From IMG/VR virus record IMGVR_UViG_3300032250_000070, positions 64,001 through 103,660 of that record: a stretch of DNA of 39,660 bases, one strand, 5' to 3'. The position numbers and the translations under genes were made by a program. Every line of letters starts with the position of its first letter. Position 1 is the stretch's first letter. The DNA is from a virus (lineage: Duplodnaviria > Heunggongvirae > Uroviricota > Caudoviricetes). Under the pieces are notes generated by a model, which was given only the letters and a program-made list of their open reading frames with translations, was not told the origin of the DNA and did not search any database. This document shows positions 1,202 to 20,144 of the stretch, piece by piece.

Positions 1202-1843
1202 TTACATTGACATTAAAAAGTCAGGAGTTGTATAGTCTCTTTTAATTGTTTTATATCCTAGTCTACCTAAGAAGCTTACCGCTGTGTTTGTATTGTCCTC
1301 TAACCATATTAGAGGTTTGTCTCTTTGTATTAGCTTTATCATTCCTTCAAATGCAGACATCTCATGGCCCTCAATATCTATCTTGATAAACTTGACAGGT
1401 TCATCAAACCACACATCGTCCAGAGCTAAGACTATGTTCTTATGTGCTCCATTAGGTACAATCTTCACTACACCACTATTAGATTCATGTCCATTGTCAA
1501 ATGATACAATAGATGTTCTACTACCCACCCCTACATTCATTGCAGATACATCATTATATCTCTTTACATTTTGCTTAAGAAGAGAGTAGTTGTCTGGATG
1601 TGGTTCAAATGCTATAATCTTTAGGTGGGGAAAGTGGTGCTTGAATTGTACACAGTGCCCTCCTATGTTAGCTCCAATGTCTAACATCAGTCCACTAGAT
1701 GGGAAATGGTCCTTCCAGCTGTTAAATAAGTCAAATTCCCAGAAATCATTGTACTTAACTATGTCATCTGAGATACATTCAGGACCCTCAAATATAATCA
1801 TGGGGTTGTTGTGTATACTTACCAATCTAGTTTCTCGTTTCAT
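1202..1843 (-). CDS. FkbM-family SAM methyltransferase
   Basis: MLDIGANIGGH, AFEPHPDNY and FIKIDIEGHE motifs. Start moved to ATG 1843 (MKRETRLV), just downstream of a minus-strand promoter. Confidence 0.9.
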   Translation of the reverse strand: MKRETRLVSIHNNPMIIFEGPECISDDIVKYNDFWEFDLFNSWKDHFPSSGLMLDIGANIGGHCVQFKHHFPHLKIIAFEPHPDNYSLLKQNVKRYNDVSAMNVGVGSRTSIVSFDNGHESNSGVVKIVPNGAHKNIVLALDDVWFDEPVKFIKIDIEGHEMSAFEGMIKLIQRDKPLIWLEDNTNTAVSFLGRLGYKTIKRDYTTPDFLMSM

Positions 1844-1846
1844 TTG

Positions 1847-1877
1847 TTGGTTATTTACCACAAATATACTATCTTTG
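1847..1877 (+). promoter_or_regulatory. Bacteroidota sigma70-type promoter
   Basis: TTG (1847-1849), N20, TATCTTTG (1870-1877). Confidence 0.75.
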
Positions 1878-1891
1878 CCCAACACAACAAA
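1861..1891 (-). promoter_or_regulatory. Bacteroidota sigma70-type promoter, overlapping and divergent from the plus-strand one
   Basis: On minus: TTTG (1891-1888), N19, TATATTTG (1868-1861). Confidence 0.8.
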
Positions 1892-1901
1892 ACATTTTGA
1901 T

Positions 1902-2270
1902 ATGAAAATTGAAGTTTCTGTAGGAGAAGTAGTAGACAAATGGACTATACTTTCTATCAAAGCTCTGAACATTACAGACAAAGACAAACTAGTTAATGTA
2001 TTCAAGGAGAAAAACTACTTGAACAATACTATTCATCCTGAGATTTTACATGATCCATTAATAGATGATCTATTAGATGTAAACAAGATGCTTTGGAACG
2101 TAGAAGACAGACTTAGAAACTGTGAAAGAGAGAAGCTGTTTGATGAACATTTTGTACAATTAGCCAGATCTGTCTATATATTGAATGACAAACGAGCACA
2201 TATTAAAAAAGAAATTAATATTAAGTATGGCTCTGATTTTGTAGAGGAGAAGTCCTACCAGCCCTACTAA
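1902..2270 (+). CDS. DUF6165-like protein
   Basis: MKIEVSVGEVVDKWTILSIK...LWNVEDRLRNCE...LARSVYILNDKRAHIKKEIN...EEKSY resembles DUF6165. Start moved to ATG 1902, after the promoter. Confidence 0.8.
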   Translation: MKIEVSVGEVVDKWTILSIKALNITDKDKLVNVFKEKNYLNNTIHPEILHDPLIDDLLDVNKMLWNVEDRLRNCEREKLFDEHFVQLARSVYILNDKRAHIKKEINIKYGSDFVEEKSYQPY

Positions 2271-4948: not shown

Positions 4949-6268
4949 ATGCCCACTTTTATAAAACCAGGATTTTGGAGAGAGCTTTGTAACCCATGTG
5001 ATGGGTACGAAGGTTGGTTAAATCTAACTGATTTAATTAATGAAGGTGCAGCTGGAACAGCTGGTACCTCTGGCACCAGTGGTGCTAAAGGTGATCAAGG
5101 AATACAAGGTGTACAAGGTGTACAAGGAATCCAAGGCATTCAAGGACCTCAAGGTATAGGTGGTTCATCTGGAACTGCTGGTACATCTGGTGTCAATGGT
5201 GTTGCTGGAGATAAGTATCAAACAACATCTTCTACAACATTTACATTAGGTACTGGTGGCACAATCACTGTAGGTACAGGACTAGCATATACAGTGGCTC
5301 AAGATATATTGATAGCCTATGATGTTAATAATCATCAGGTTTCAATGGTTACGTCATACAATCCTGCTACAGGAGCGTTGGTATTTGGTACTCCTTCTGA
5401 AACTACAGGATCAGGCACATATAGCTTATGGAGTGTAAACCTTAATGGAGCAGCAGGTGGAGATGGTACTTCTGGTACATCAGGACTTTCTGGTTCTTCT
5501 GGAAGCAATGGTGCACAAGGTATCCAAGGTATACAGGGTATACAGGGTGTACAAGGTGAACAGGGTGCACAAGGTTTAGCAGGTACCAGTGGAACAAGTG
5601 GTAGCTCAGGAACATCTGGTGTTAGTGGCACTAGTGGTACGAATGGTAGCTCAGGAACAGCAGCAACAGCAGGAACAAGTGGTAACACAGGAACTTCAGG
5701 TTTAACTGGAACTAGTGGAACATCAGGAACTTCTCCTGTACTTCCTTTACCTGTAGTGTTTGGATTATATTCTCAAACAGCTAACAGTGCTATTGTTACT
5801 AATACAACAACTGAATCAACAATTATTGGTCCTGGTGTTGGTACATTAAGTGTACCTGCTAATGGATTTGCTGTTGGTGATTCCTTTAGAGCAGTTTTTG
5901 GTGGTGTTGTGAATGCTAATAATAATGAAACTATTAGAATTAGAATGAGAACAGGATCTGTTGTTCTTCTAGATAGTGGCATTCAAAACCTTGGAAGTGC
6001 TATTATAGATGATGTGTGGAGTCTAAATGTTGATTTTACAATTAGACAAATTGGAACTGCTGGTGTAGCATCTATTGTATCATTAGGATCATTCCATTAC
6101 ACAAAGACTAACAATGCCTCTATTCAAGGATTTGGATTTAATGTAATAAATAGTACAACATTCAATACAACAATTAACAATACATTAGATGTTACAGTTC
6201 AATGGGGAACTGCTAGCACAGGAAACAATATATATAGCGACATTTTTATATTAAATAAAACATATTAA
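4949..6268 (+). CDS. Collagen-like fibre/decoration protein
   Basis: G-x-Q runs ([13 protein letters not shown]) flanked by G-T-S runs, in two blocks separated by a small beta domain; C-terminal globular beta domain. Confidence 0.8.
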
Positions 6269-6272
6269 TAAC

Positions 6273-7481
6273 ATGGCAATACCTTCTAGACAAATAGGCT
6301 GGGGCACTACAGACAACCTATTATGGCAAATATCCAAGCAAATGGAAACATTAACTAAAGTTACATACAATTCTGGTGGTGGTGGAGGTGGAATAACCTC
6401 TATTGGTTTAAGTATGCCACCAGCATATAGTGTTCCTAATTCTCCTTTAATATCAAATGGCACACTTAATGTTGTTGCTAATGGTGTTGCAAGTCAATAC
6501 GTTAGAGGTGATGGAACGCTTGCAGATTTCCCAAACATAGGTGGAGGAGGTGGTCAAGTATTCTTCTTTAATGGTGGTACATCACAAGGTGTAATAGGTG
6601 GAAACACATATTATGAATTAGGTGAAACTGCTGCCACTGGTCCTAGTGCAGATTTTTCAGTGACTGGAGATGGTTTTTTAGCTAGATTCATCACTGATGT
6701 AAATAGTCCAAACGAGACGTTAATACCAAGTGGTAATTGGAATTTTAGAATGTATTTTAGTGCATCCTCTGCTGGTGGATCACCAACTATTATAGCTACA
6801 ATACAAAAATATGATGGGGCAACATTTACTACGATTGCAACATCCACTGGGGAGGTAATCACTGGTGGAACATCAGAAGATTTGTATAATTTTTCTGCCT
6901 CTTTTGCAGATACAGCCTTAGCTTCTACAGATAGAATTGCAATAACATTTACATTATCTAATTCTGATGGAAGAACTGTTACGTTATATACAGAAGGTTC
7001 TAATATATCTGAGGTGGTAACAACATTTTCAACTGGTATAAGCTCACTTAATGGCTTAACTGCTACTTCTCAAAACTTTGCAACAGGTGTTACTGGCACT
7101 GATTTTAATATTGTATCAAGTGAAGACACTCATACATTTAATATACCTACAGCATCAGCCACCGCAAGAGGGGTTATAACAAGTGCAATGTATAATACAA
7201 TTACATATAATGTAATTACCACTACAATAAACTACTTGGCTTTACAAAATGACTCTGTTATTTTAGCAGATGCAACTGGAGGAGCTATAACAATCACTTT
7301 ACCTAGTGCTATTGGAGCATATAAACCAGTGACAGTAAAAAGAATCAACGCTGGTGCAAATGCTGTGAATATTAACACTGTATCAAGTCAAACCTTTGAT
7401 GGTTCTACAACTGGAAGTCTTAATGTTCAAAACCAATCATTAACATTTGCTTCAAATGGTGCGAATTGGTTTATAGTATAA
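6273..7481 (+). CDS. Putative tail fibre/virion structural protein
   Basis: Gly linkers separating beta-rich Thr/Ser domains. C-terminal ILADATGGAITITLPSA...VTVKRIN...FDG...LTFASNGANWFIV resembles phage fibre tip domains. Confidence 0.6.
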   Translation: MAIPSRQIGWGTTDNLLWQISKQMETLTKVTYNSGGGGGGITSIGLSMPPAYSVPNSPLISNGTLNVVANGVASQYVRGDGTLADFPNIGGGGGQVFFFNGGTSQGVIGGNTYYELGETAATGPSADFSVTGDGFLARFITDVNSPNETLIPSGNWNFRMYFSASSAGGSPTIIATIQKYDGATFTTIATSTGEVITGGTSEDLYNFSASFADTALASTDRIAITFTLSNSDGRTVTLYTEGSNISEVVTTFSTGISSLNGLTATSQNFATGVTGTDFNIVSSEDTHTFNIPTASATARGVITSAMYNTITYNVITTTINYLALQNDSVILADATGGAITITLPSAIGAYKPVTVKRINAGANAVNINTVSSQTFDGSTTGSLNVQNQSLTFASNGANWFIV

Positions 7482-7510
7482 ACAATAAAAAACAATAAAA
7501 ATAATAAAAG

Positions 7511-8860
7511 ATGGCTTATAATCCTCAAAATCCAAATGGTCAAGCGACCTCAGCAAACAGTAGTCCAGTTGTTATAGCAAGTAACCAAAGTGCTGTACCA
7601 GTAAGTGGAACTGTAGCTGTATCAGGTACAACAGCAGTGAGTGGTACAGTAACTGCAAACGCAGGAACTAACTTAAACACTTCTGCCTTAGCACTAGAAA
7701 ATGGTAATATATCTAGTATTAATACAAAAACACCAGCGTTAGGTTCTGCAGCAACATCTGCAAGTACACCAATGGTTCAAGCTATTGACACAGCAAGTGG
7801 TGGTATTAGCGTTCTAAACTTAAATCAAACTGGAACAGCAACAAATAATAGTGCTGTAGAAATTGTTGTTAACAGTGCTAGTTCAGTAACAATAGGGGTG
7901 AGTGGAACATTTGTTGCCACTTTATCTGTACAAGTGAGTACAGATGGAACAAACTGGACCACTCTTACATATAATTCACTTATAAACGTTGTTAATGGTG
8001 GTGCCCAAGCTAACATTACTGCTCCTGGTGTGTATACACTTCAAACAGCTGGATGGTTAAGAATGAGAATCACTTCTTCAGCATATACATCTGGTACTGC
8101 TACAATATCATTAAGAGCCGTTGTTGCTCCTTCTATTGTTGCAATCAATAGCCCATTACCATCTGGAACTAACGCAATAGGTAGTACTGCTTTAAACCAA
8201 ACAAATCTTGTTAATGATGTAGCATCATCAGCTATTACAGGCACTACAACAACATCAGCATTCACTCCAACTACTGGAGTTGCTTATTCTGTTAGTATTC
8301 CAGTTACCGCATCTAGTGGAACTTTTATAGGATTAGATGTTAATATTGAAGAATCAGATGATAATGGTAATAACTGGTTTGTTGTATATTCATTTCCTAG
8401 AATCACTGCTAATGGTACATACCGTTCTCCAATGCTAACTTTAAGAGGTAATAGAATAAGATATGTACAAACAGTTTCAGGTACTTCTCCTTCATTTACA
8501 AGATCAATTAATAGACTTCAGTCAAATGCAATTCCTCAAAATCCAATTACACAATTGATTGATAGAAGTATAAATTTAACAACACTTAATAGCACAACTC
8601 CAATTCTAAACGTTCAAAATTCTACAAATCTTCAAGTGGCCGTATATATTAATACAGCTACCACTGCTCCTAGACTTATGTTTGAGGGTAGTAATGATAA
8701 TGGAGCGACTTGGTTTGACATTACAGGAGTAATTACTATTGCTGGTGTAACTATACTTGAAAATACAGCAAATACTAACGTACAATTAGTAAGGGCAAGA
8801 AATACTCAAAATGGTTCAAACGTTGGATCAGGTTATTATGTAATACTGAAAGGATTTTAA
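7511..8860 (+). CDS. Putative virion structural protein with three repeated beta-sandwich domains
   Basis: Repeated [QEG]-x-S-x-D-x-G-x-x-W units (VQVSTDGTNW, IEESDDNGNNW, FEGSNDNGATW), each followed by an RxR strand. Confidence 0.6.
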   Translation: MAYNPQNPNGQATSANSSPVVIASNQSAVPVSGTVAVSGTTAVSGTVTANAGTNLNTSALALENGNISSINTKTPALGSAATSASTPMVQAIDTASGGISVLNLNQTGTATNNSAVEIVVNSASSVTIGVSGTFVATLSVQVSTDGTNWTTLTYNSLINVVNGGAQANITAPGVYTLQTAGWLRMRITSSAYTSGTATISLRAVVAPSIVAINSPLPSGTNAIGSTALNQTNLVNDVASSAITGTTTTSAFTPTTGVAYSVSIPVTASSGTFIGLDVNIEESDDNGNNWFVVYSFPRITANGTYRSPMLTLRGNRIRYVQTVSGTSPSFTRSINRLQSNAIPQNPITQLIDRSINLTTLNSTTPILNVQNSTNLQVAVYINTATTAPRLMFEGSNDNGATWFDITGVITIAGVTILENTANTNVQLVRARNTQNGSNVGSGYYVILKGF

Positions 8861-8869
8861 TAAAAATAT

Positions 8870-9241
8870 ATGAGTCTAACTGCTTACGTAAGATATGACA
8901 ATAGGGGAAGGCTTGTTCCAGGCGGACCAATAGTCACCTCAGTTAAGCCCAAGGTGGGTGACTGGGTAGCTATTAGTGATGTGCTTGTTACAAATACTGC
9001 TCCAAACTACAAACTACGTGCGTTTGTTAGATATATAAATAATATAGGTCGTCAAAGCAAAGATAACAAATATGTAGCTGGTAGCTTGATCCTTCAACAC
9101 AATGAACCCCAAGATGGTAATTGGAAAGAGATTTACTTCATAAAACCTTGTGACTCTTGTAACCCCACTGGTGATTTTATATTAGCAGAGAACGGTGACC
9201 CCATCATAACAGAAAACAATAACAATTTAATTGTAGAATAA
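8870..9241 (+). CDS. Small structural/adaptor protein with two copies of the AYVRYD...KPKVGxW module
   Basis: LTAYVRYDNRGRLV..KPKVGDW and LRAFVRY..GSLILQHNEPQDGNWKEI; acidic tail DFILAENGDPIITENNNNLIVE. Confidence 0.7.
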   Translation: MSLTAYVRYDNRGRLVPGGPIVTSVKPKVGDWVAISDVLVTNTAPNYKLRAFVRYINNIGRQSKDNKYVAGSLILQHNEPQDGNWKEIYFIKPCDSCNPTGDFILAENGDPIITENNNNLIVE

Positions 9242-9242
9242 C

Positions 9243-12200
9243 ATGGCAAATATAAAAATTAGTGCATTACCAAACGCTGCTGCATTGACAGGAACTGAAC
9301 AAGTTCCTGTAGTTCAAGGTGGTGCAACAGTAAAAACAACAGCTCAAGACATTGCTAATTTAGGTGGTGGAGGTGGCGGTGGTGTAATGGCTGCTGGTAG
9401 TGGAATTTGTTCAATTGTAGGTAGTGGTTGTTACAATAACGCTTGTGGGGATTATTCTGCTGCATTAAGTGGTCAATGTAACAATATAACTGCAAGCGGA
9501 GCTAATGCTAAACATAACGTAATAAGTGGTGGTTTTTGTAACAAAATTAGTGGAACTTATAATAGTTATTCATTCATAGGTGGTGGACAATGTAATACAG
9601 CTTGTGGAACACGTTCAGTTGTTGTAGGTGGTAGATGTAACACAATTAGTTTTAGTGGATATTATTCATTTATTGGTAGTGGATTTCAAAACACAGTATC
9701 AGCATATTACGGAGTAGTAGTGGGTGGATATTCAAACACAGCTTGTGGAATACGTTCATTTATAGGTGGTGGTTGTGCTAACACAGTCAGTGGATATGCT
9801 TCTTTTGTAGGTGGTGGTAGAGATAACACAGCTAGTGGACAAGACTCATTTATAGGTGGTGGTAGATTTAATATAGCAAGTGGATATTATTCATTTATTG
9901 GTGGTGGTAGCTGCAATACTGCACAATGTGATTATACTGGAGTATTTGGATGTAACTTATGTAATACACAAGCTTGCACATTCATGGCTAACAACTTTGT
10001 TGTTGGTGACTTTGTAGGTTGTGATGGATGTTCTTTAGCTTTAGATGCTAATGGAAAAATGTGTATTGGTTCTGGTGGTGGTGGAAGTTCTCCTATGGTT
10101 GTTGGTAGTGGTGGTACTGGTTCAATTCAAGGTAATGGGTCAGACAATAATGCTTGTGGAAATTATTCATTTGTTGGAGGTGGTTTTTATAATACAGCTT
10201 GTGGTGAGACTTCATTCATTGGCGGTGGAGGTTTTAACACAGCTAGTGGAACTTATTCAACAATTAGTGGTGGGTATATTAATACAGCTTGTGGACGTAA
10301 TTCAACAATTAGTGGTGGATGTTGTAACAATATAACTGCAAGTGGAGCTTATATTTGTAATAATGTAATAACTGGTGGTGGTTGTAATACAATTAGTGGA
10401 GCTTATGCTACAAGTGCATTTATAGGTGGTGGTAGTGTTAATAATGCTTGTGGTAGTTATTCAGCTATTGTTGGTGGAACTTGTAATACAGCTAGTGGTA
10501 ATTATTCATTTGTAGGTGGTGGTGAATGTAACACAGCTTGTGGACCTACTTCATTTGTAGGTGGTGGAAATTGTAATACAGCCAGTGGGTATTATTCAGC
10601 TATTGGTGGTGGTCAAAATAACATAGCTAGTGGTAATTATTCATTTGTAGGTGGTGGATTTGGTAATACAGCTAGTGGATATTATTCAACAATAAGTGGT
10701 GGACAAGGTAACATAGCTTGTGGTACTTGTTCATTTGTAGGTGGTGGTGAAGCTAATAAGGCTTGTGGTGCTTATTCTTTTGTTGGAGCTGGTAAATCTA
10801 ACACAGCTGTTATTGATTATTCAACAATTGGTGGTGGTGAATGTAATGCTACTTGTGCTAGTCATTCAACAATTAGTGGAGGTTTTACTAACACAGCTTG
10901 TGGTATTGCTTCATTTATAGGTGGAGGTTATAGTAATATAGCTAGTGGAGTTAATTCAACTATTTCTGGTGGTTATTGTAATACAGCCAGTGCATATTAC
11001 TCATCTGTAGGTGGTGGATATTGTAACAAGGCTTGTGGTGTTGGTTCATTTGTAGGAGGGGGATGTGTTAATACAGCTTGTTGTATTGCTTCATCTGTTG
11101 GTGGTGGTATCTGTAATAGATCTTGTGGACGTAATTCAACTATCAGTGGTGGTTATGTTAATATTGCTAGCGGATGTTCTTCAACTGTAGGGGGTGGTGG
11201 TACCAACACAGCTAGCGGTTGTTATTCAACTATTAGTGGAGGATATCGTAGTACATCTTCAGGATATGTATCATTTGTTGGTGGTGGTAGAAATAATGTT
11301 TCAACTGCTGACTTCTCATTTGTTGGAGGAGGACACTTTAACACAGTTTTAGGCTGTGGAGGAGGTGTTGTTGCTGGTGTTACTAACACTGCTTGTGGAT
11401 GTAATTCTACAATTAGTGGTGGATATGTTAACACAGCTATTGCTGACCAATCATTTATTGGTGGTGGTATTTGTAATACAACTTGTGGGGTTAGTTCATT
11501 TATTGGAGGTGGTGGTGGTAACACAGTTTGTGGTCTTGATTCATTTGTAGGTGCTGGTTTTACTAATACAGTGGGTGCAGGTTGCTCATTCATAGGTGGT
11601 GGACAATGTAACACTGTAAGTAGTATTTATTCATTTGTGGGTGGTGGTCTATGTAACGCAGTTTCTACACAACAGTCATCTGTACTTGGAGGATGTAATA
11701 ATAGAATTATTTCTGCTGGTTCTCATTCAACAGTTGTTGGAGGTATAAATAATACTATTTGTGGTTGTTTTTCAACAGTTAGTGGTGATGCTAATACTAT
11801 TTGTAGTGGTTCTTGTTATTCATCAGCATTTGGTTGTAACTTAACAGCTAGTGCTCCTCGTACATTCTATGTAAACAACATGTGTGTATGTGGTACATTA
11901 AGTAAGACATCTGGTTCATTCAAGATTCCTCATCCAGATCCAATCAAAGCAGAAGCAGGTAAGTTTCTAAAGCATTCATTCGTAGAATCACCTACAGCTG
12001 GAGATAACATTTACAGATTTAGTGTTACAACATCAAATTGTAGTGCATCTATTGAACTTCCAGACTATTACAGCTTATTAAACACTAATGACCACGTATA
12101 TGTTAATGCTAAGAAGCATTTAGGATATGGATTTGGTATTGTTAATGACGAACAAACTCGTATTGACATTACAACTAATACTGATGGTGATTATAACATA

Positions 12201-12278
12201 CTTTTAATTGGTACAAGAAAAGATAAACTAGCTTTAGATGCTTGGAATGGCACAGAAGTTAATGACGTAGAGAAGTAA
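9243..12278 (+). CDS. Gly/Cys-rich repeat fibre (beta-roll/beta-helix) with C-terminal chaperone-like domain
   Basis: N-terminal IKISALP..LTGTEQVPVVQGG typical of aquatic phage fibres; about 50 imperfect 15-aa repeats; C-terminal FKIPHPDP...LKHSFVESP...IELPDYY. Confidence 0.8.
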   Translation: MANIKISALPNAAALTGTEQVPVVQGGATVKTTAQDIANLGGGGGGGVMAAGSGICSIVGSGCYNNACGDYSAALSGQCNNITASGANAKHNVISGGFCNKISGTYNSYSFIGGGQCNTACGTRSVVVGGRCNTISFSGYYSFIGSGFQNTVSAYYGVVVGGYSNTACGIRSFIGGGCANTVSGYASFVGGGRDNTASGQDSFIGGGRFNIASGYYSFIGGGSCNTAQCDYTGVFGCNLCNTQACTFMANNFVVGDFVGCDGCSLALDANGKMCIGSGGGGSSPMVVGSGGTGSIQGNGSDNNACGNYSFVGGGFYNTACGETSFIGGGGFNTASGTYSTISGGYINTACGRNSTISGGCCNNITASGAYICNNVITGGGCNTISGAYATSAFIGGGSVNNACGSYSAIVGGTCNTASGNYSFVGGGECNTACGPTSFVGGGNCNTASGYYSAIGGGQNNIASGNYSFVGGGFGNTASGYYSTISGGQGNIACGTCSFVGGGEANKACGAYSFVGAGKSNTAVIDYSTIGGGECNATCASHSTISGGFTNTACGIASFIGGGYSNIASGVNSTISGGYCNTASAYYSSVGGGYCNKACGVGSFVGGGCVNTACCIASSVGGGICNRSCGRNSTISGGYVNIASGCSSTVGGGGTNTASGCYSTISGGYRSTSSGYVSFVGGGRNNVSTADFSFVGGGHFNTVLGCGGGVVAGVTNTACGCNSTISGGYVNTAIADQSFIGGGICNTTCGVSSFIGGGGGNTVCGLDSFVGAGFTNTVGAGCSFIGGGQCNTVSSIYSFVGGGLCNAVSTQQSSVLGGCNNRIISAGSHSTVVGGINNTICGCFSTVSGDANTICSGSCYSSAFGCNLTASAPRTFYVNNMCVCGTLSKTSGSFKIPHPDPIKAEAGKFLKHSFVESPTAGDNIYRFSVTTSNCSASIELPDYYSLLNTNDHVYVNAKKHLGYGFGIVNDEQTRIDITTNTDGDYNILLIGTRKDKLALDAWNGTEVNDVEK
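9400..11900 (+). repeat. Coding tandem repeat, about 45 nt / 15 aa, consensus NTA[SC]GxxS[FT][IV]GGGxx
   Basis: e.g. aatacagctagtggtaattattcatttgtaggtggtgg, recurring with variation. Two blocks (about 9400-9990 and 10130-11890). Confidence 0.9.
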
Positions 12279-12304
12279 TAAAACAAAACCAACAAAAACT
12301 ACAT

Positions 12305-13321
12305 ATGAAGGATCTTAAATTTATCTGTGCTCAGCCAGATGATGTCTACTACACATGGCAAGTGCATCTATGGTTAGAAAGCTTGAAGAAGCTTGGGCAC
12401 TCAGACAAGGCAATTGTTTTAGTGTACACACCTAGTTTTAGGGAATACAATGGCAAATGGGAGAAGATAATGGAACTATATCCAGAAGCAAAGTTTGCTT
12501 TCTACAAGGATACAGGAGACGTTAGTCAGTATTTAGGAGTTTATATTCCTATTTTACGTCCATATTGCTTAATGAGATATTTTCAGGACAATCCTGATAT
12601 GGTGACCAAAGCAGTGTTTTACTGTGATTGTGATGTAATCTTCACAGAAAAGTTTGATGTAGATAAATTTAAAGATGATGATGTAAACTACTTGTCTGAT
12701 ACAAATAGTTATATCAACGCTTCATATTTTGATAGTAAGTTAAGAGATGTTCTACCAAGTAAGTTGGAAGAATACAAAACTAGAGATGTTTTAGCTGAGC
12801 TTACAAGCTTAGTGGGTATAACAAGAGAAATAGCTGAGGCTAACAATGATCATTCAGGAGGGGCTCAATACTTCCTTAAGAACATAGATGCTAATTTCTG
12901 GAAGAAGGTGATGAATGATTGTGTACTTATTCGTACCTATCTTCAGAACATAAATAGAGAGTTCTTTAAAGATGAGAACGCAGGGTTCCAAAGCTGGTGT
13001 GCAGACATGTGGGCTGTACTATGGAACGTTTGGCTTAGAGAACAAGAAGCAAAGAACATTCCTGAAATGGAATTCTGTTGGTCTTCAGATGCTATAGAGA
13101 AGCTGGATAGAACAACAATATTACATAACGCAGGTATTACAGGACAGAACACAATGGGCTATCCTGCTTTCTACAAAGGAGCATACCACACTGGTAAAGA
13201 TCCTTTTCTAGATACACACGTACTAAAAGTGCTTAGTGATGAGACTTCTAAAAAATATGCTAATCATTACTACACTCAACGACTAATAGAAATAAAAAAC
13301 AAGTATAATTTAAAATATTAA
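12305..13321 (+). CDS. GT-A fold glycosyltransferase, resembling peptidyl-Ser/Hyp O-glycosyltransferases (GT95/GT96-like)
   Basis: YYTWQVHLWLESL near the N-terminus, DxD in FYCDCDVIF, GGAQYF, WCADMWAVLW, ILHNAG. Confidence 0.6.
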   Translation: MKDLKFICAQPDDVYYTWQVHLWLESLKKLGHSDKAIVLVYTPSFREYNGKWEKIMELYPEAKFAFYKDTGDVSQYLGVYIPILRPYCLMRYFQDNPDMVTKAVFYCDCDVIFTEKFDVDKFKDDDVNYLSDTNSYINASYFDSKLRDVLPSKLEEYKTRDVLAELTSLVGITREIAEANNDHSGGAQYFLKNIDANFWKKVMNDCVLIRTYLQNINREFFKDENAGFQSWCADMWAVLWNVWLREQEAKNIPEMEFCWSSDAIEKLDRTTILHNAGITGQNTMGYPAFYKGAYHTGKDPFLDTHVLKVLSDETSKKYANHYYTQRLIEIKNKYNLKY

Positions 13322-13323
13322 TT

Positions 13324-14022
13324 ATGGCCCAAAACACAAATCGCCCTCTCAAAGCTTATGTACGCTTTGATGGTACTGGAAGAATCGTTCCAAGCAGCCT
13401 AATCTTAAGAAGAAAGAAACCAAAAGTGGGTAGATGGGTAGAGATACCAGCTTATGAATGCTGCAATTATGTTCCTACATCTACAACTACTACTACTAGT
13501 TCTAGCACAAGTAGTACAACAACAACTACTACAACAGCCGCAAGTTATACAATAGGTCAATCAGCATTAGGTGGTAAAATTGCGTATATTCTACAACCAG
13601 GTGATCCAGGATACAATGCTAGTGTACAACATGGATTAGTGGCTACAGTTGCAGATATTTCTACAGGTGCAGCATGGGGATGTGCAGGTACATTAATTAC
13701 AGGAGCTGATGGTCTGGCAATAGGTACTGGTAATCAAAATACAATAGATATATTGGCTCAGTGTCCAACAGCAGGAATTGCTGCAAGAATTTGTAGTGAT
13801 TTAATAGAAGGTGGATATAATGACTGGTATTTACCAAGTATTGATGAACTACAACAACTATACAATAATAGAGTGGCTATTGGTGGTTTTACTGGTAACG
13901 AATATTGTAGTTCTACAGAGTTTGACATTGACTATAATTGGGGTCTGGATTTCATAACTGACACTAGTGGTGCTTATCAAAAGGACCAATCACTATATGT
14001 TCGTGCAATAAGAAGTTTCTAA
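13324..14022 (+). CDS. Shared N-module + poly-Thr/Ser linker + DUF1566 (Lcl C-terminal-like) domain
   Basis: WYLPSIDELQQLY and C-terminal YVRAIRSF; linker TSTTTTTSSSTSSTTTTTT. Confidence 0.8.
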   Translation: MAQNTNRPLKAYVRFDGTGRIVPSSLILRRKKPKVGRWVEIPAYECCNYVPTSTTTTTSSSTSSTTTTTTTAASYTIGQSALGGKIAYILQPGDPGYNASVQHGLVATVADISTGAAWGCAGTLITGADGLAIGTGNQNTIDILAQCPTAGIAARICSDLIEGGYNDWYLPSIDELQQLYNNRVAIGGFTGNEYCSSTEFDIDYNWGLDFITDTSGAYQKDQSLYVRAIRSF

Positions 14023-14503
14023 AATAATTAAATAAAATAGAGCACACATCTTACGGTGTGCTCTTTATAAAAAATATAAAATGGCAAATAGCAATAATAG
14101 ATTAAAAGCATACGTTCGTTATGATGGTACAGGACGTGTCATAGCAGGTAGTTTGATCTTACAAAGATTCAAACCAAAGGTTGGTAACTGGCAAGAGATT
14201 GATGCAAATGAGTGTTGTAACTATGTTCCAACTACCACTACTACCACAACATCTGGAGGAATTTATACAATAGGCCAAGCTGCATTAGGTGGTATCATTG
14301 CGTATATTAATGGTGGTGGAACTTCAGGTACTTCAGGTTTAGTGGCTGCAGTTGCAGATTTTCCTAGTGGATATATTCAGTGGGGATGTAGAGGTACTGA
14401 AATAGTAACAGGAACTGCAATAGGTACTGGTAATCAAAACACTATTGATATACTTGCTGAGTGTCCAACAGCAGGAATTGCTGCAAGAATTTGTAGTGAT
14501 TTA
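13760..14503 (+). repeat. 44-bp exact direct repeat (13760-13803 = 14460-14503) between the DUF1566 paralogues
   Basis: AGTGTCCAACAGCAGGAATTGCTGCAAGAATTTGTAGTGATTTA occurs twice, 700 bp apart; flanks differ at synonymous sites. Confidence 0.9.
14039..14066 (+). terminator. Hairpin between the two DUF1566 genes
   Basis: AGAGCACAC-atcttacg-GTGTGCTCT followed by only TT(T); weak terminator or other signal. Confidence 0.55.
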
Positions 14504-14734
14504 GTTGAGGGAGGTTATAATGATTGGTACCTACCGAGTCAAGATGAGTTAAATGCTTTATATATAAATAGAGTGGCTATTGGTGGTTTTGTTGATGACA
14601 GCTATTGGAGTTCTTCACAACCCCAAGATATTTTTGGACAAGACGCAGCATTTGTTCAGGATTTCACAGATGGTAGTCAAGGGCAAGGGGGAAAAATTAC
14701 TGGACGCCTTGTTCGTGCAGTGAGAAGTTTCTAA
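14081..14734 (+). CDS. Paralogue: shared N-module + poly-Thr linker + DUF1566 domain
   Basis: WYLPSQDELNALY, YWSSS, LVRAVRSF. Confidence 0.8.
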   Translation: MANSNNRLKAYVRYDGTGRVIAGSLILQRFKPKVGNWQEIDANECCNYVPTTTTTTTSGGIYTIGQAALGGIIAYINGGGTSGTSGLVAAVADFPSGYIQWGCRGTEIVTGTAIGTGNQNTIDILAECPTAGIAARICSDLVEGGYNDWYLPSQDELNALYINRVAIGGFVDDSYWSSSQPQDIFGQDAAFVQDFTDGSQGQGGKITGRLVRAVRSF

Positions 14735-14758
14735 AATAATCAACTTTAAAAAAATAAA

Positions 14759-15166
14759 ATGGCACTTAAATCATTATTCCCTGATGAGATGATGAAATCA
14801 GGAGAATTAAACTTGGAAACAATAGCTGGGAAGCTTACATATTTCCATGAGCAATTACATCTATTACATTGGCAGACAAAGAGTTATGCTGAGCACCAAG
14901 CTCTAGGAGGATTGTATGATTATGTACATGATTTCAAAGATGGTGTGATAGAAAAAATCATGGGATATACAGGCAAACGTCCTGCTCCATATAAGATAGA
15001 ACCATTAAGTGGTGCAGATTCTAATTCAGTTGTCACAGCACTAATGGACTTCGCTAGTAACTTAAAAGCATATGGTGAGACTAATAAATTTCATGATATA
15101 GCTAACTTAGCTGATGCTCTATCTGGAGAAGCTGCTAAAGTACGCTACTTATTAACCTTGTCTTAA
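14759..15166 (+). CDS. Ferritin/Dps-like protein (DUF5856-like)
   Basis: HLLHWQTKSYAEHQALGGLYD..DGVIE resembles the Dps ferroxidase-site pattern; ends YLLTLS. Confidence 0.75.
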   Translation: MALKSLFPDEMMKSGELNLETIAGKLTYFHEQLHLLHWQTKSYAEHQALGGLYDYVHDFKDGVIEKIMGYTGKRPAPYKIEPLSGADSNSVVTALMDFASNLKAYGETNKFHDIANLADALSGEAAKVRYLLTLS

Positions 15167-15804
15167 TGCCTGTTATTTATAAAATAACGTCTCCTACAAA
15201 TAAAATTTATATTGGTCAATCTTGGAATTTTAATTCTAGGATTGGTTTTTATAAAACTTATAAATGTAAAAGACAAGTTAAATTATACAACTCTTTATTA
15301 AAACATAGTTACGAGTCTCATAAAGTAGAAGTTATTTGTTCACTACCAGAAGACATTACACAAGACTATTTAGATCTTTATGAGTTAACATATTGGCAAT
15401 TTTATAAAGACTGTAATTTTGATATGTTAAATATTAGAGAACCTGGTAGAGCTGGTAGACTTTCAGAAGAAACTAAAGTTAAAATTAGAAACAAATTAAA
15501 AGGAAGACCTCTTGATATAAAACACAAAGAGAATGTAATTAATGCTTTATATGGTAGAAGGTTTTCTGAAGAATCTAAGAAAAAAATTGGGGATTCTAAT
15601 AGAGGAATAAACAATGGTATGTTTGGCAGATCTGGTAACTTGAACCCTATGTCAAAACAGGTATTAGATTTATCAAATAATAATATTTTTACATGTGTTA
15701 GAGAAGCTGCAGAAAGTTTTGGTATAAGTAAACAGATATTAATAAATAAACTAAATGGACGTACTAAAAACAATACCACTTTAATATATGTGTCAAACAG
15801 TTAG
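15166..15804 (+). mobile_element. Free-standing GIY-YIG homing endonuclease with NUMOD3-type repeats
   Basis: VIYKITSPTNKIYIGQS; SEETKVKIRNKLKG and SEESKKKIGDSNRG; C-terminal HTH (VREAAESFGIS); more AT-rich than flanks. Confidence 0.9.
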
Positions 15805-16084
15805 AAAAGGATTTTTACGTGTATTAACAGATAATGAAGATACTTACTTTAGGCATTTAAATGGTATAATTGACTCAGTTGATGAACTATCTACGTTGGA
15901 GATTACTAAGACTCCTCACTCGTATCACTTTAGATTAGCACCTTCACTGCCTATGTACAATGAAATGTTGCTAGAAGAAATCTTAAAGTTTCATAATATG
16001 TTCAAAATTAGACTAAACCTGTCTAAAAGTATCAAAAGTTCTGCAACTATAACGTTCGAAATAAATTTGGCAGATACGCAATAA
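15788..16084 (+). CDS. Hypothetical protein
   Basis: 98-aa ORF filling the gap and overlapping the GIY-YIG stop. Confidence 0.65.
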   Translation: MCQTVRKGFLRVLTDNEDTYFRHLNGIIDSVDELSTLEITKTPHSYHFRLAPSLPMYNEMLLEEILKFHNMFKIRLNLSKSIKSSATITFEINLADTQ

Positions 16085-18839: not shown

Positions 18840-18843
18840 TAAG

Positions 18844-18870
18844 AAAGCCCTCAATTAGAGGGCTTTTTTT
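18844..18870 (+). terminator. Intrinsic terminator at the convergence of the two gene blocks
   Basis: AAAGCCCTC-aatta-GAGGGC-TTTTTTT. Confidence 0.85.
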
Positions 18871-19405
18871 ATTTCTTCACTCCCCAAAAATATAAGTCTT
18901 GAGGCCATGTTTCTCTAGCAATAAACTCATGCTGTGAGAAATGGTTTTCCATATCTATCTCTTCACGAATATCTTGTTCTGTGAGATTCATGTAATAATC
19001 ATTCTCAATTTCTGATGTAAATGGAGAGTCTTGAGGTGTGGTTCTTTTAGTTCCATGTTCAGGTCTTCCTGTCGTAGCACAGCTAAACAAGAATATTCCT
19101 CCTGGTTTAGTTAAAGCAATGCAGTTTTTAATTGTATCCTTCCAGAATTCATCATGTTCAAAGCATTCAGCTGATATAACAATATCAAATCCTTCAGGGT
19201 CTTTGAACTCATGTCCTCTACATACAACGTCTACATTCTTTCCTGCTCCAATATCTACACCAATGTATTTATAGTTTGTAAATAGATATCTGTTGTTTCC
19301 ATTAATATCTAATGAACCAATATCTAACACTCTACAATTTGTAAACTTCTCAAGGAATCTATCCTTTACGTACGTCATGAACGTCCTCTGTTCTGGGTGT
19401 GCCAT
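18869..19405 (-). CDS. Class I SAM-dependent methyltransferase
   Basis: VLDIGSLDING, YIGVDIGAGKNVDVV, FDIVISAECFEH, KPGGIFLF. Confidence 0.9.
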   Translation of the reverse strand: MAHPEQRTFMTYVKDRFLEKFTNCRVLDIGSLDINGNNRYLFTNYKYIGVDIGAGKNVDVVCRGHEFKDPEGFDIVISAECFEHDEFWKDTIKNCIALTKPGGIFLFSCATTGRPEHGTKRTTPQDSPFTSEIENDYYMNLTEQDIREEIDMENHFSQHEFIARETWPQDLYFWGVKK

Positions 19406-20144
19406 TTAAATGTGTTTTTAATAATTCTAAATAATCTTTTTCCCAATAAGGAATAAGATGAACATCTCCTGTAGGAATTCTTCCCATAGTTCTTTCTCTT
19501 TCAATATGAGCACTGTGTCTTTGAATAGCATTGAGTTTACCAGGTGTATCATGACCTTGTCCACTCATATGGTATCCTCTTCCTCCCCACATATAGAACC
19601 AGCTAGCTTCTTCTTTAGGTGGTTTGGCAAACAGTCTACCTCCATATTTATGTAATGTTTCTATAAACGTCATATCATATCCAGCATTTTCAAGAGGATG
19701 TCCTCCTATTGCTTTCCAAGCTGACTTTCTAAACACAATACCAGAGTTACCTATCCAACCAACATTTTCAATACCTGTGATATGACATAAGACTCCTGTC
19801 TCCCAATGAAGAATATTTACTTCTTCTGTCATATACTTAGCTACGTTCTGTAAGTGATGTGGTAGAGCTACGTCATCATCATCCCATTGACATATAATAT
19901 CTCCTTGACATAACTCTGTAGCATAGTTTTCCTTTTCTCCTATAGTATCAAACGTTTTAGGTAGGTTGACTATCTTGATTTGAGGATGCTCAAATATAAG
20001 AGTTTGTAAGGGATAATCATTTACTATGATGAGTTCACATCTATCCTTAGGATAGTCTTGCTTGAGGAAAGACTCAATGCTCTCCTCAAGCGTGGCCACC
20101 CTTCCATAAGTTATACATTTGCATGATATAAATGGATAGTCCAT
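19359..20144 (-). CDS. Glycosyltransferase family 2
   Basis: ISCKCITYGR, ELIIVND, ICQWDDDD. Confidence 0.9.
   Translation of the reverse strand: MDYPFISCKCITYGRVATLEESIESFLKQDYPKDRCELIIVNDYPLQTLIFEHPQIKIVNLPKTFDTIGEKENYATELCQGDIICQWDDDDVALPHHLQNVAKYMTEEVNILHWETGVLCHITGIENVGWIGNSGIVFRKSAWKAIGGHPLENAGYDMTFIETLHKYGGRLFAKPPKEEASWFYMWGGRGYHMSGQGHDTPGKLNAIQRHSAHIERERTMGRIPTGDVHLIPYWEKDYLELLKTHLNGTPRTEDVHDVRKG

Follow-up and report, generated by a model that had tools for sequence, protein, structure and literature searches.

Introduction

Glycosylation of virus particles by phage-encoded enzymes has, according to one report (PMC12619734, citing Freeman et al. 2023), been demonstrated experimentally only in a few mycobacteriophages, where the glycans occupy the C-termini of capsid and tail-tube subunits and reportedly shield the particle. 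Here we examine a gene in a 39,660-nucleotide stretch (hereafter the window) of a Caudoviricetes phage genome of 103,660 bp, corresponding to positions 64,001 to 103,660 of IMG/VR record IMGVR_UViG_3300032250_000070. The open reading frame (ORF) 12305..13321 (+) encodes a 338-amino-acid protein of the family PHROG 4417, whose annotated function is "unknown". We consider it quite likely that this protein, hereafter the glycosyltransferase (GT), is a phage protein O-glycosyltransferase that acts on poly-Thr/Ser tracts of particle proteins. The proposal draws on the predicted fold, conserved catalytic residues, gene linkage, the paired presence and absence of the gene and poly-Thr tails, and a domain fusion; from these we infer glycosylation itself.

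The mycobacteriophage system resembles this locus in several respects. It comprises phage-encoded glycosyltransferases with nearby methyltransferases, as described in PMC12619734 and PMC13313380, and its glycosyltransferase genes are linked to virion structural genes, as they are in the window and in 12 distant phages discussed below. The C-terminal position of its glycans also matches most of the poly-Thr tails found in Firmicutes phages that carry PHROG 4417. However, the enzyme family is another one (our tblastn search returned no Mycobacterium phage, see below), the host phyla are others, and the acceptor signature proposed for PHROG 4417 is a homopolymeric Thr run. The tracts in the window, moreover, are internal linkers of lectin-domain proteins and not tails of capsid or tail-tube subunits. 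Glycosylation has been demonstrated in the mycobacteriophages, whereas for PHROG 4417 it is proposed.

Other described systems act on repetitive protein tracts or on virion glycans. The plant and algal enzymes of GT96 (SGT1/SERGT1) and GT95 (HPAT1-3, PLENTY, RDN; PF23452) place the first sugar on repetitive hydroxy-amino-acid tracts of extensins and arabinogalactan proteins, a feature that resembles our proposal. Among retaining GT8-type enzymes, glycogenin and GlyE work on proteins, the latter decorating Ser-rich repeats in the pneumococcal serine-rich-repeat protein pathway. In Bacillus, the collagen-like Thr-rich repeats of the exosporium protein BclA are O-glycosylated by dedicated cytoplasmic glycosyltransferases; the G-T-S collagen-like fiber encoded in the window recalls BclA. 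Finally, A64R of the Chlorella virus PBCV-1 (PDB 2P6W) is a virus-encoded, soluble GT-A enzyme that works in the cytoplasm on the glycan of the virion major capsid protein. It differs from the phage GT in being a weaker structural match, in serving the N-linked glycan of a virus of eukaryotes, and in having no association with poly-Thr tags.

Results

A predicted GT-A glycosyltransferase in PHROG 4417

The GT gene starts with ATG, and its product carries the motifs YYTWQ (residues 15-19), WLES (23-26), DCDVIF (108-113) and WCADMWA (230-236). A first-pass annotation, made from the letters alone, had reported this ORF and these motifs, and every one of them is present. That annotation had also called the product a DxD GT-A enzyme, and on this point it is borne out. 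D108 and D110, together with Q229 and H274, are invariant in 68 of 68 aligned family members, which share 30-95% identity with the query, and both the DxD and the late His persist even among those that are 30-47% identical. D234 is kept in at least 90% of the 68 members, and GGAQY and HNAG blocks are likewise nearly invariant.

The GT matches phrog_4417 in PHROGs with an E value of 1.2e-55. The family is very large: its members fall into 2,155 clusters at the 90% identity level and are covered by 765 representatives at the 50% level, and none of the 2,155 clusters bears a Pfam domain or an informative name. The query gave no Pfam match at E <= 1, no NCBIfam match and, with phmmer, no PDB sequence match; the family profile searched against PDB sequences yielded chance-level matches only, with nothing better than E 0.027. 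Glyco_transf_8 (PF01501) is absent from the 25 families most often matched by the 68 members (E <= 1), consistent with the negative Pfam search of the query. HPAT (PF23452, GT95) is touched by 2 of the 68 members only, at a below-threshold E value of 0.012, and among the nearest named ESM Atlas clusters PF23452 appears on 10-58% of members, which we treat as a lead only.

An AlphaFold2 model built on the 68-member alignment has a predicted local distance difference test score (pLDDT) of 97.1 and a predicted template-modeling score (pTM) of 0.93. It forms a single Rossmann-like alpha/beta/alpha domain, as in solved GT-A enzymes. In the model the DxD follows strand 103-106 and H274 lies in a late strand (272-274), the usual GT-A metal-binding layout. 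Against AlphaFold models of Swiss-Prot proteins, the top match is the Arabidopsis peptidyl-Ser alpha-galactosyltransferase (GT96; E 1.3e-10, template-modeling (TM) score 0.60), followed by the GT95 hydroxyproline O-arabinosyltransferases HPAT1-3, PLENTY and RDN (TM 0.59-0.62). GT8 models trail behind these at TM 0.41-0.47 in this one search, in which the models on both sides are predicted. Among AFDB clusters the family itself comes first (TM ~0.8), and HPAT-like and DUF7164 proteins come next. Foldseek against the PDB gave 262 matches at E <= 0.001, the highest being glycogenin, WbbM, alpha-1,3-galactosyltransferase and UGGT. An aligner independent of Foldseek returned 110 solved chains at Z >= 8, with GT-A glycosyltransferases filling the top ranks; glycogenin, Skp1 alpha-GalT, LgtC, UGGT, WbbM and GlyE scored Z 12.9-13.9, and A64R scored Z 11.5. 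Several of these nearest solved folds act on proteins or protein-bound glycans.

The four independent fold searches thus agree in modeling the GT as a GT-A fold nucleotide-sugar glycosyltransferase, and the nearest solved folds suggest that its mechanism is probably retaining. The plant enzymes match over nearly the whole length (E 1.3e-10 to 1e-6, TM 0.59-0.62). However, identity is 10-14%, the plant proteins are Golgi membrane proteins whereas the phage GT is soluble, and the GT95 acceptor is hydroxyproline, in contrast to the Thr/Ser proposed for the phage. Glycogenin, LgtC and GlyE (retaining, GT8-type), together with Skp1 alpha-GalT (GT77) and UGGT (GT24), align over 218-249 residues with a root-mean-square deviation of 3.7-4.5 A; they share the DxD and late His and reach Foldseek E values of ~1e-6. 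Their identity to the GT is ~10%, there is no Glyco_transf_8 match, and the GT is ~80-100 residues longer than glycogenin (338 versus ~260). The first-pass annotation had compared the motif order with that of GT96/GT95. Resemblance to those families stands as the top Swiss-Prot AlphaFold match; membership does not, the evidence being structure together with faint sequence and language-model signals. The GT is probably remotely related to GT95/GT96, and it is a member by no curated threshold. As a possible refutation, that annotation had named best structural matches to enzymes acting on DNA or on lipopolysaccharide (LPS). No DNA glycosyltransferase is among the fold matches listed, but LgtC and WbbM tie with others at the top of the solved folds.

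Thr/Ser tracts beside the gene

The GT gene begins 26 nucleotides past the end of a gene for a 1011-amino-acid, Cys-rich fiber (9243-12278) and ends 2 nucleotides short of ORF 13324-14022. This order, with the GT co-oriented between the fiber and two proteins bearing poly-Thr/Ser linkers, had been described in the first-pass annotation and is confirmed by the ORF positions, as is the GTSGTS peptide, which lies in ORF 14081. The GT and the two downstream proteins are as follows.

12305..13321, + strand: GT-A fold DxD glycosyltransferase of PHROG 4417, 338 amino acids, soluble; proposed Thr/Ser-tract protein O-glycosyltransferase (from invariant residues, model and fold searches)
13324..14022, + strand: proposed acceptor 1; N-terminal module (residues 1-48), Thr/Ser run at residues 50-74 (25 residues, nucleotides 13471-13545), lectin-like Lcl_C/DUF1566 domain (residues 108-230)
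14081..14734, + strand: proposed acceptor 2; N-terminal module, poly-Thr at residues 49-60 (nucleotides 14225-14260), GTSGTS stretch, Lcl_C/DUF1566 domain (residues 134-215)

Both downstream ORFs are paralogous, with an N-terminal module of ~48 residues, a Thr/Ser run and then Lcl_C/DUF1566 (PF07603; E 3.5e-11 in ORF 13324 and 2.5e-09 in ORF 14081). Defining a tract as at least 8 Ser or Thr in 10 residues, we find tracts in 2 of the 59 window ORFs, namely these two. A census of the whole genome finds them in 5 of 105 ORFs, two of which directly follow the GT. The most heavily tagged protein of the genome is one of the other three and lies outside the window: an 1839-amino-acid protein (G000:C1:22904-28423, +) has five poly-Thr/Ser tracts in its C-terminal third and is a candidate for a GT target acting in trans.

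Using the GT protein as the single query, we collected 80 loci from IMG/VR in which the GT is 67-95% identical. In 79 of these, the strand that bears the GT also encodes a Thr/Ser tract no more than 1.5 kb away, and tract density is 0.84 per kb near the GT versus 0.03 per kb elsewhere in these loci, a 26-fold enrichment. The N-terminal module is shared by the very next ORF in 60 of 78 loci, and the payload behind the Thr run differs widely; that of the proposed acceptor protein is common to two relatives only, and some ORFs amount to barely more than module and Thr run. Such tag-only ORFs, 61-97 amino acids long, follow the GT at L011:7020-7532, L016:7020-7616, L033:7020-7465 and L027:7038-7223. 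Their products might serve as decoration or as spacers; alternatively, frameshifts in metagenome assemblies may have split off their payloads.

Distant phages and a presence/absence control

A tblastn search of 50,697 phage records with the GT (E <= 1e-5) matched 77 records at 22-35% identity. Phages of Lactobacillus, Enterococcus, Staphylococcus, Lactococcus and Clostridium make up most of these, with one of Arcanobacterium and one of Chryseobacterium; none of the 77 is a Mycobacterium phage. A megablast comparison of 7 kb of the window with phage records gave no match. In all 12 distant phages examined (from Enterococcus, Lactococcus, Lactobacillus, Staphylococcus, Clostridium, Arcanobacterium and Chryseobacterium), the virion structural module encloses the GT gene. 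In phiFL1A, phiCTP1, 1706, TPWB06 and SA2 it comes immediately after the tail-tube gene or after a short poly-Thr ORF that overlaps the 3' end of the tail-tube gene; in Semele it stands behind a gene annotated "major tail protein", and in bIL285, nattely and R3.3 it directly follows an annotated or presumed head gene.

Poly-Thr tracts in these phages are restricted to a handful of ORFs. These encode the major tail protein, proteins of the head module (whose annotation reads either major head protein or head maturation or assembly protease) and neighboring products that are hypothetical or lack annotation; most of the tracts lie at or near the C-terminus. Poly-Thr tails occur on annotated tail-tube or head-module proteins of phiFL1A, 1706, R3.3, TPWB06, SA2, nattely and bIL285. 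In LP65, gp051, a protein annotated as structural from two-dimensional gels and mass spectrometry, and its neighbor gp050 end in T-rich repeats, and in ENFP1 the product of the gene immediately preceding the GT has (TTVAP)n at its end. For Semele, phiCTP1, LP65 and ENFP1, tracts were taken from annotated coding sequences together with a scan that disregards reading frame. That scan places the nearest tract at most 153 nucleotides from the GT in 10 of the 13 loci; against a uniform null, which is conservative, the Fisher combined p is 2e-4.

Long poly-Thr stretches are also encoded in short ORFs at the 3' end of the tail-tube gene in Staphylococcus phage SA2 (L092:19658-19930) and Arcanobacterium phage TPWB06 (L085:18933-19187), and, in Enterococcus phage nattely (L086:8408-8548), at the 3' end of a presumed, unannotated capsid gene upstream of the GT. 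This arrangement looks like programmed frameshifting or read-through, which would yield both tagged and untagged subunits.

Streptococcus Javan prophages serve as a paired control. Their tail-tube and capsid proteins are 55-60% identical to those of phiFL1A and lack poly-Thr tails, and no Streptococcus record was matched in the tblastn search with the GT. The Javan tail-tube protein stops at "...TTGDYDNITK", where the poly-Thr tail of phiFL1A begins, and the Javan capsid protein ends a few residues beyond "...EIPEGVVEATIE", which corresponds to the start of the other phiFL1A tail. To both proteins phiFL1A appends 20-27 residues of nearly pure Thr. Because the Javan prophages gave no match to the GT and lack the tails, the gene and the tags come and go together. 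Co-occurrence of the GT with T-rich genes, which the first-pass annotation had suggested checking across related genomes, therefore holds in close relatives, in distant phages and in this control.

Domain fusions and candidate partner enzymes

Longer members of the family fuse the GT domain to GT2, GT6, GT7C, GT25-like, GT32-like, methyltransferase and radical SAM/SPASM domains. One fusion protein, P0195, unites homologs of three genes that are separate in the window. Its N-terminal GT2 domain shares 28% identity with the window GT2 protein (19359-20144; E 2e-13), its middle domain is 41% identical to a window methyltransferase (18869-19405; E 4e-34), and its C-terminal domain is 38% identical to the GT (E 3e-46). 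Such a Rosetta-stone relation suggests that the GT, GT2 and methyltransferase act in one pathway, which probably builds a methylated di- or oligosaccharide. These candidate partners, and a further methyltransferase, are encoded at the following positions.

19359..20144, - strand: GT2-family glycosyltransferase (PF00535, E 2.7e-12); proposed glycan-extending partner
18869..19405, - strand: class I S-adenosylmethionine-dependent methyltransferase (Methyltransf_23, E 3.1e-07); proposed glycan-methylating partner
1202..2005, - strand: FkbM-family methyltransferase (PF05050, E 4.1e-17); might also belong to the glycan toolkit

At another locus (L101:656-5144), a GT-radical SAM/SPASM fusion directly follows two genes whose products are 34-36% Ser plus Thr with long poly-Thr runs, and it precedes an APS kinase gene. 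This setting suggests that the glycan of that phage might be sulfated or carry some other additional modification. No gene for sugar-nucleotide synthesis was found among the ORFs scanned.

The genome also encodes a homolog of TibC/AAH-family heptosyltransferases (G000:C1:60470-61462, -), ~2.5 kb before the start of the window (locus L098). It scores 249 bits against TIGR04414, above the curated cut-off, and belongs to Pfam GT9.

Neighboring genes

From 6273 to 16084, co-oriented genes on the + strand follow one another closely, with intergenic gaps between -17 and 58 nucleotides; the sole strong + strand terminator of this block is at 18841-18869. A scan for sigma-70 promoters found sites to be rarer than in shuffled sequence and is therefore uninformative, as expected for a Bacteroidota phage. 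Three structural or module-bearing proteins are encoded upstream of the GT.

4949..6268, + strand: collagen-like tail fiber rich in G-T-S triplets, with 44 overlapping runs of three GXY triplets
8870..9241, + strand: 123-amino-acid protein with two copies of the N-terminal module of the acceptors and no Thr run
9243..12278, + strand: Gly/Cys-rich beta-roll fiber, 1011 amino acids, 64 Cys, 15-residue period, 20% Ser plus Thr (LbR_Ice_bind, E 1.3e-07)

The two copies in the 123-residue protein indicate that the acceptor N-terminal module is a reusable unit of the block. A second shared N-terminal module, starting MAIPSRQIGWGT, heads ORF 6273-7481 (+); in relatives (L008-L083) it is also found on one to three ORFs upstream of the GT, with varying payloads and sometimes Thr runs. 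The block therefore employs two distinct reusable N-terminal modules. The beta-roll fiber is a possible acceptor of either the GT or the TibC-like enzyme, and casting its 15-residue repeats as acceptor of the latter is speculative. By analogy with BclA, the collagen-like fiber is a possible further Thr/Ser acceptor.

Behind the acceptor genes lies a gene for a DUF5856 protein (14759-15166, +; PF19174, E 1.9e-13; phrog_858, "starvation-inducible transcriptional regulator"), and the same holds in 9 of 9 relatives whose ORF lists were inspected. A GIY-YIG/NUMOD homing endonuclease gene (15166-15804, +; phrog_314, E 3e-20) is inserted next. It is missing at the corresponding position of the inspected relatives, where the DUF5856 gene leads directly to the next conserved ORF. 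Between 16391 and 18839 (+), small basic proteins rich in Lys, Ala and Gly and starting with MATxKK are encoded; they are kept in relatives, gave no family match, and their run stops at the terminator 18841-18869.

Discussion

A model for tract glycosylation

We favor the reading that the GT glycosylates Thr/Ser tracts of particle proteins. No membrane segment is predicted in the GT, implying a soluble cytoplasmic enzyme, and we picture a Mn- or Mg-dependent GT-A enzyme that takes a nucleotide sugar from the host. Before lysis, it would put the first sugar on Thr or Ser of disordered homopolymeric tracts of the phage's own particle proteins. The likeliest acceptors here would be the two Lcl_C-domain proteins encoded directly downstream, modified on their disordered Thr/Ser linkers, and the three tract-bearing proteins encoded elsewhere in the genome might serve as additional ones. 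In Firmicutes phages, tail-tube and head-module proteins would be modified on the poly-Thr tails that they carry at or near their C-termini. The window GT2 and methyltransferase would then probably extend and subsequently methylate the first sugar. The resulting mucin-like coat might stiffen and extend the linkers, guard them against proteases and alter how the particle surface is recognized.

Several observations weigh against this reading. Three of the five tract-bearing ORFs of the genome sit ~50 kb from the GT, in the structural region, and tracts are missing altogether from one close relative (L076). Because the close-relative loci share ancestry, their tracts attest to conservation and not to independent association. 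In bIL285 the nearest tract is 1.8 kb from the GT, and two loci with multi-glycosyltransferase fusions adjoin genes for proteins of ~1,250 residues that are 24-29% Ser plus Thr and lack a pure poly-Thr run. The tie of LgtC and WbbM, enzymes of lipooligosaccharide (LOS) and O-antigen, at the top of the solved folds means that the fold alone leaves the acceptor unfixed. The TibC/AAH-like enzyme is a second candidate protein O-glycosyltransferase and might act on the tracts here. Finally, our literature search found no experimental report of a glycan on tail or capsid proteins of Firmicutes phages.

A paper on Oenococcus was considered as evidence for a virion glycan and set aside, as periodic acid stains cells only in that work. 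The literature search also returned no description of the PHROG 4417 family or of its pairing with poly-Thr. Freeman et al. 2023 (Cell Host Microbe 31:1216), which lay outside that search, reportedly describes virion glycosylation in mycobacteriophages Che8, Corndog and Myrna.

The first-pass annotation had envisaged a self-contained system for virion glycosylation. The pairing of GT and tracts supports a virion glycosylation system, but "self-contained" is too strong given the further GT2, the two methyltransferases and the TibC/AAH-like heptosyltransferase. To that picture the present analysis contributes the control that pairs presence and absence of gene and tails, the fusion that links three genes, and the count of tracts across the whole genome.

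Alternative roles

The most durable alternative, although in our view an unlikely one, is that the GT extends a glycan whose first sugar is placed on Thr or Ser by the TibC/AAH-like heptosyltransferase or by a host enzyme. A candidate for such a priming enzyme, scoring above its curated cut-off, is at hand in this genome, the PHROG 4417 domain is often fused to other glycosyltransferase domains, and the close solved folds Skp1 alpha-GalT, UGGT, GlyE and A64R lengthen glycans already attached to proteins. However, small temperate phages of the bIL285 type, in which the only annotated glycosyltransferase is PHROG 4417, still have poly-Thr tails. Among the 62 genes of bIL285, no second one is annotated as a glycosyltransferase, so the PHROG 4417 enzyme would have to prime there, and phages that carry this enzyme alone tie poly-Thr to it. 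Furthermore, the top AlphaFold database matches, GT96 and GT95, attach the first sugar straight to the peptide. TibC/AAH-type enzymes are known for their action on Ser in beta-helix repeats and not on disordered homopolymers.

It is less probable still that, during infection or lysogeny, the GT alters an envelope glycan of the host, whether LPS, capsule or teichoic acid, which might serve to block superinfection, with the Thr-rich neighbors being incidental. Phage-encoded serotype-converting glycosyltransferases are well known, and the LOS and O-antigen enzymes LgtC and WbbM are among the tied best solved folds. Against this, the GT gene resides in the late structural operon of both lytic and temperate phages, away from integrase and lysogeny genes, and its product has no membrane segment. 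The poly-Thr tails are gained and lost along with the gene, and the Gram-negative and Gram-positive hosts of the carriers have unrelated envelope glycans.

We give little credence to a third role, in which the GT glycosylates hypermodified bases of phage DNA to evade restriction. Many phage glycosyltransferases do act on DNA, and the window comes from a large lytic phage with nucleotide-metabolism genes; the genome encodes rIIA/rIIB, UvsX, ribonucleotide reductase and primase, and also dUTPase. Yet the fold matches listed include no DNA glycosyltransferase, the GT gene stands apart from the nucleotide-metabolism genes, and the GT also occurs in the small prophages bIL285 and phiFL1A, with no base-hydroxymethylating enzyme in the listed annotation.

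Least credible of all is a GT that acts on a small molecule or is a non-catalytic assembly factor for the neighboring structural proteins: its gene position is typical of tail or head accessory and chaperone genes, but the invariance of the DxD and late His in members of 30-47% identity argues for retained catalysis, and the fusion partners are glycan enzymes and not structural domains.

Implications

Beyond the single enzyme, we lean, with only modest confidence, toward a broader proposal: that the PHROG 4417 enzyme and poly-Thr form a portable "glyco-tag" system that has spread among phages of Bacteroidota and Bacillota and possibly, as the Arcanobacterium phage would suggest, of Actinomycetota, that the GT, GT2 and methyltransferase build a methylated glycan, and that the family is a prokaryotic-virus branch of the GT95/GT96 lineage. 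If this is true, any particle protein that acquires a Thr run would become a substrate, and O-glycosylated virions would be common and not a peculiarity of mycobacteriophages. The finding would give a very large unnamed family a simple acceptor signature, the Thr run, and set it apart from the mycobacteriophage enzymes; it would also link phage enzymes to the protein glycosyltransferases of plant cell walls.

Carriers of PHROG 4417 include phages of gut, dairy, clinical and freshwater bacteria, several of them cultured and genetically tractable. Among the cultured ones are Enterococcus phages phiFL1A and VPE25, Lactococcus phage 1706 and prophage bIL285, Lactobacillus phage LP65, Staphylococcus phage SA2 and Chryseobacterium phage MA9V-3. 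If confirmed, O-glycosylation of Thr/Ser tracts would supply a function for a "hypothetical protein" of thousands of phage genomes and account for a puzzling feature of tail-tube and capsid proteins, their poly-Thr tails. It would bear on phage therapy with Enterococcus and Staphylococcus phages, through antibody recognition, clearance and adherence to mucus, and on the control of dairy phages, and it would provide a small enzyme-plus-tag pair for glyco-engineering.

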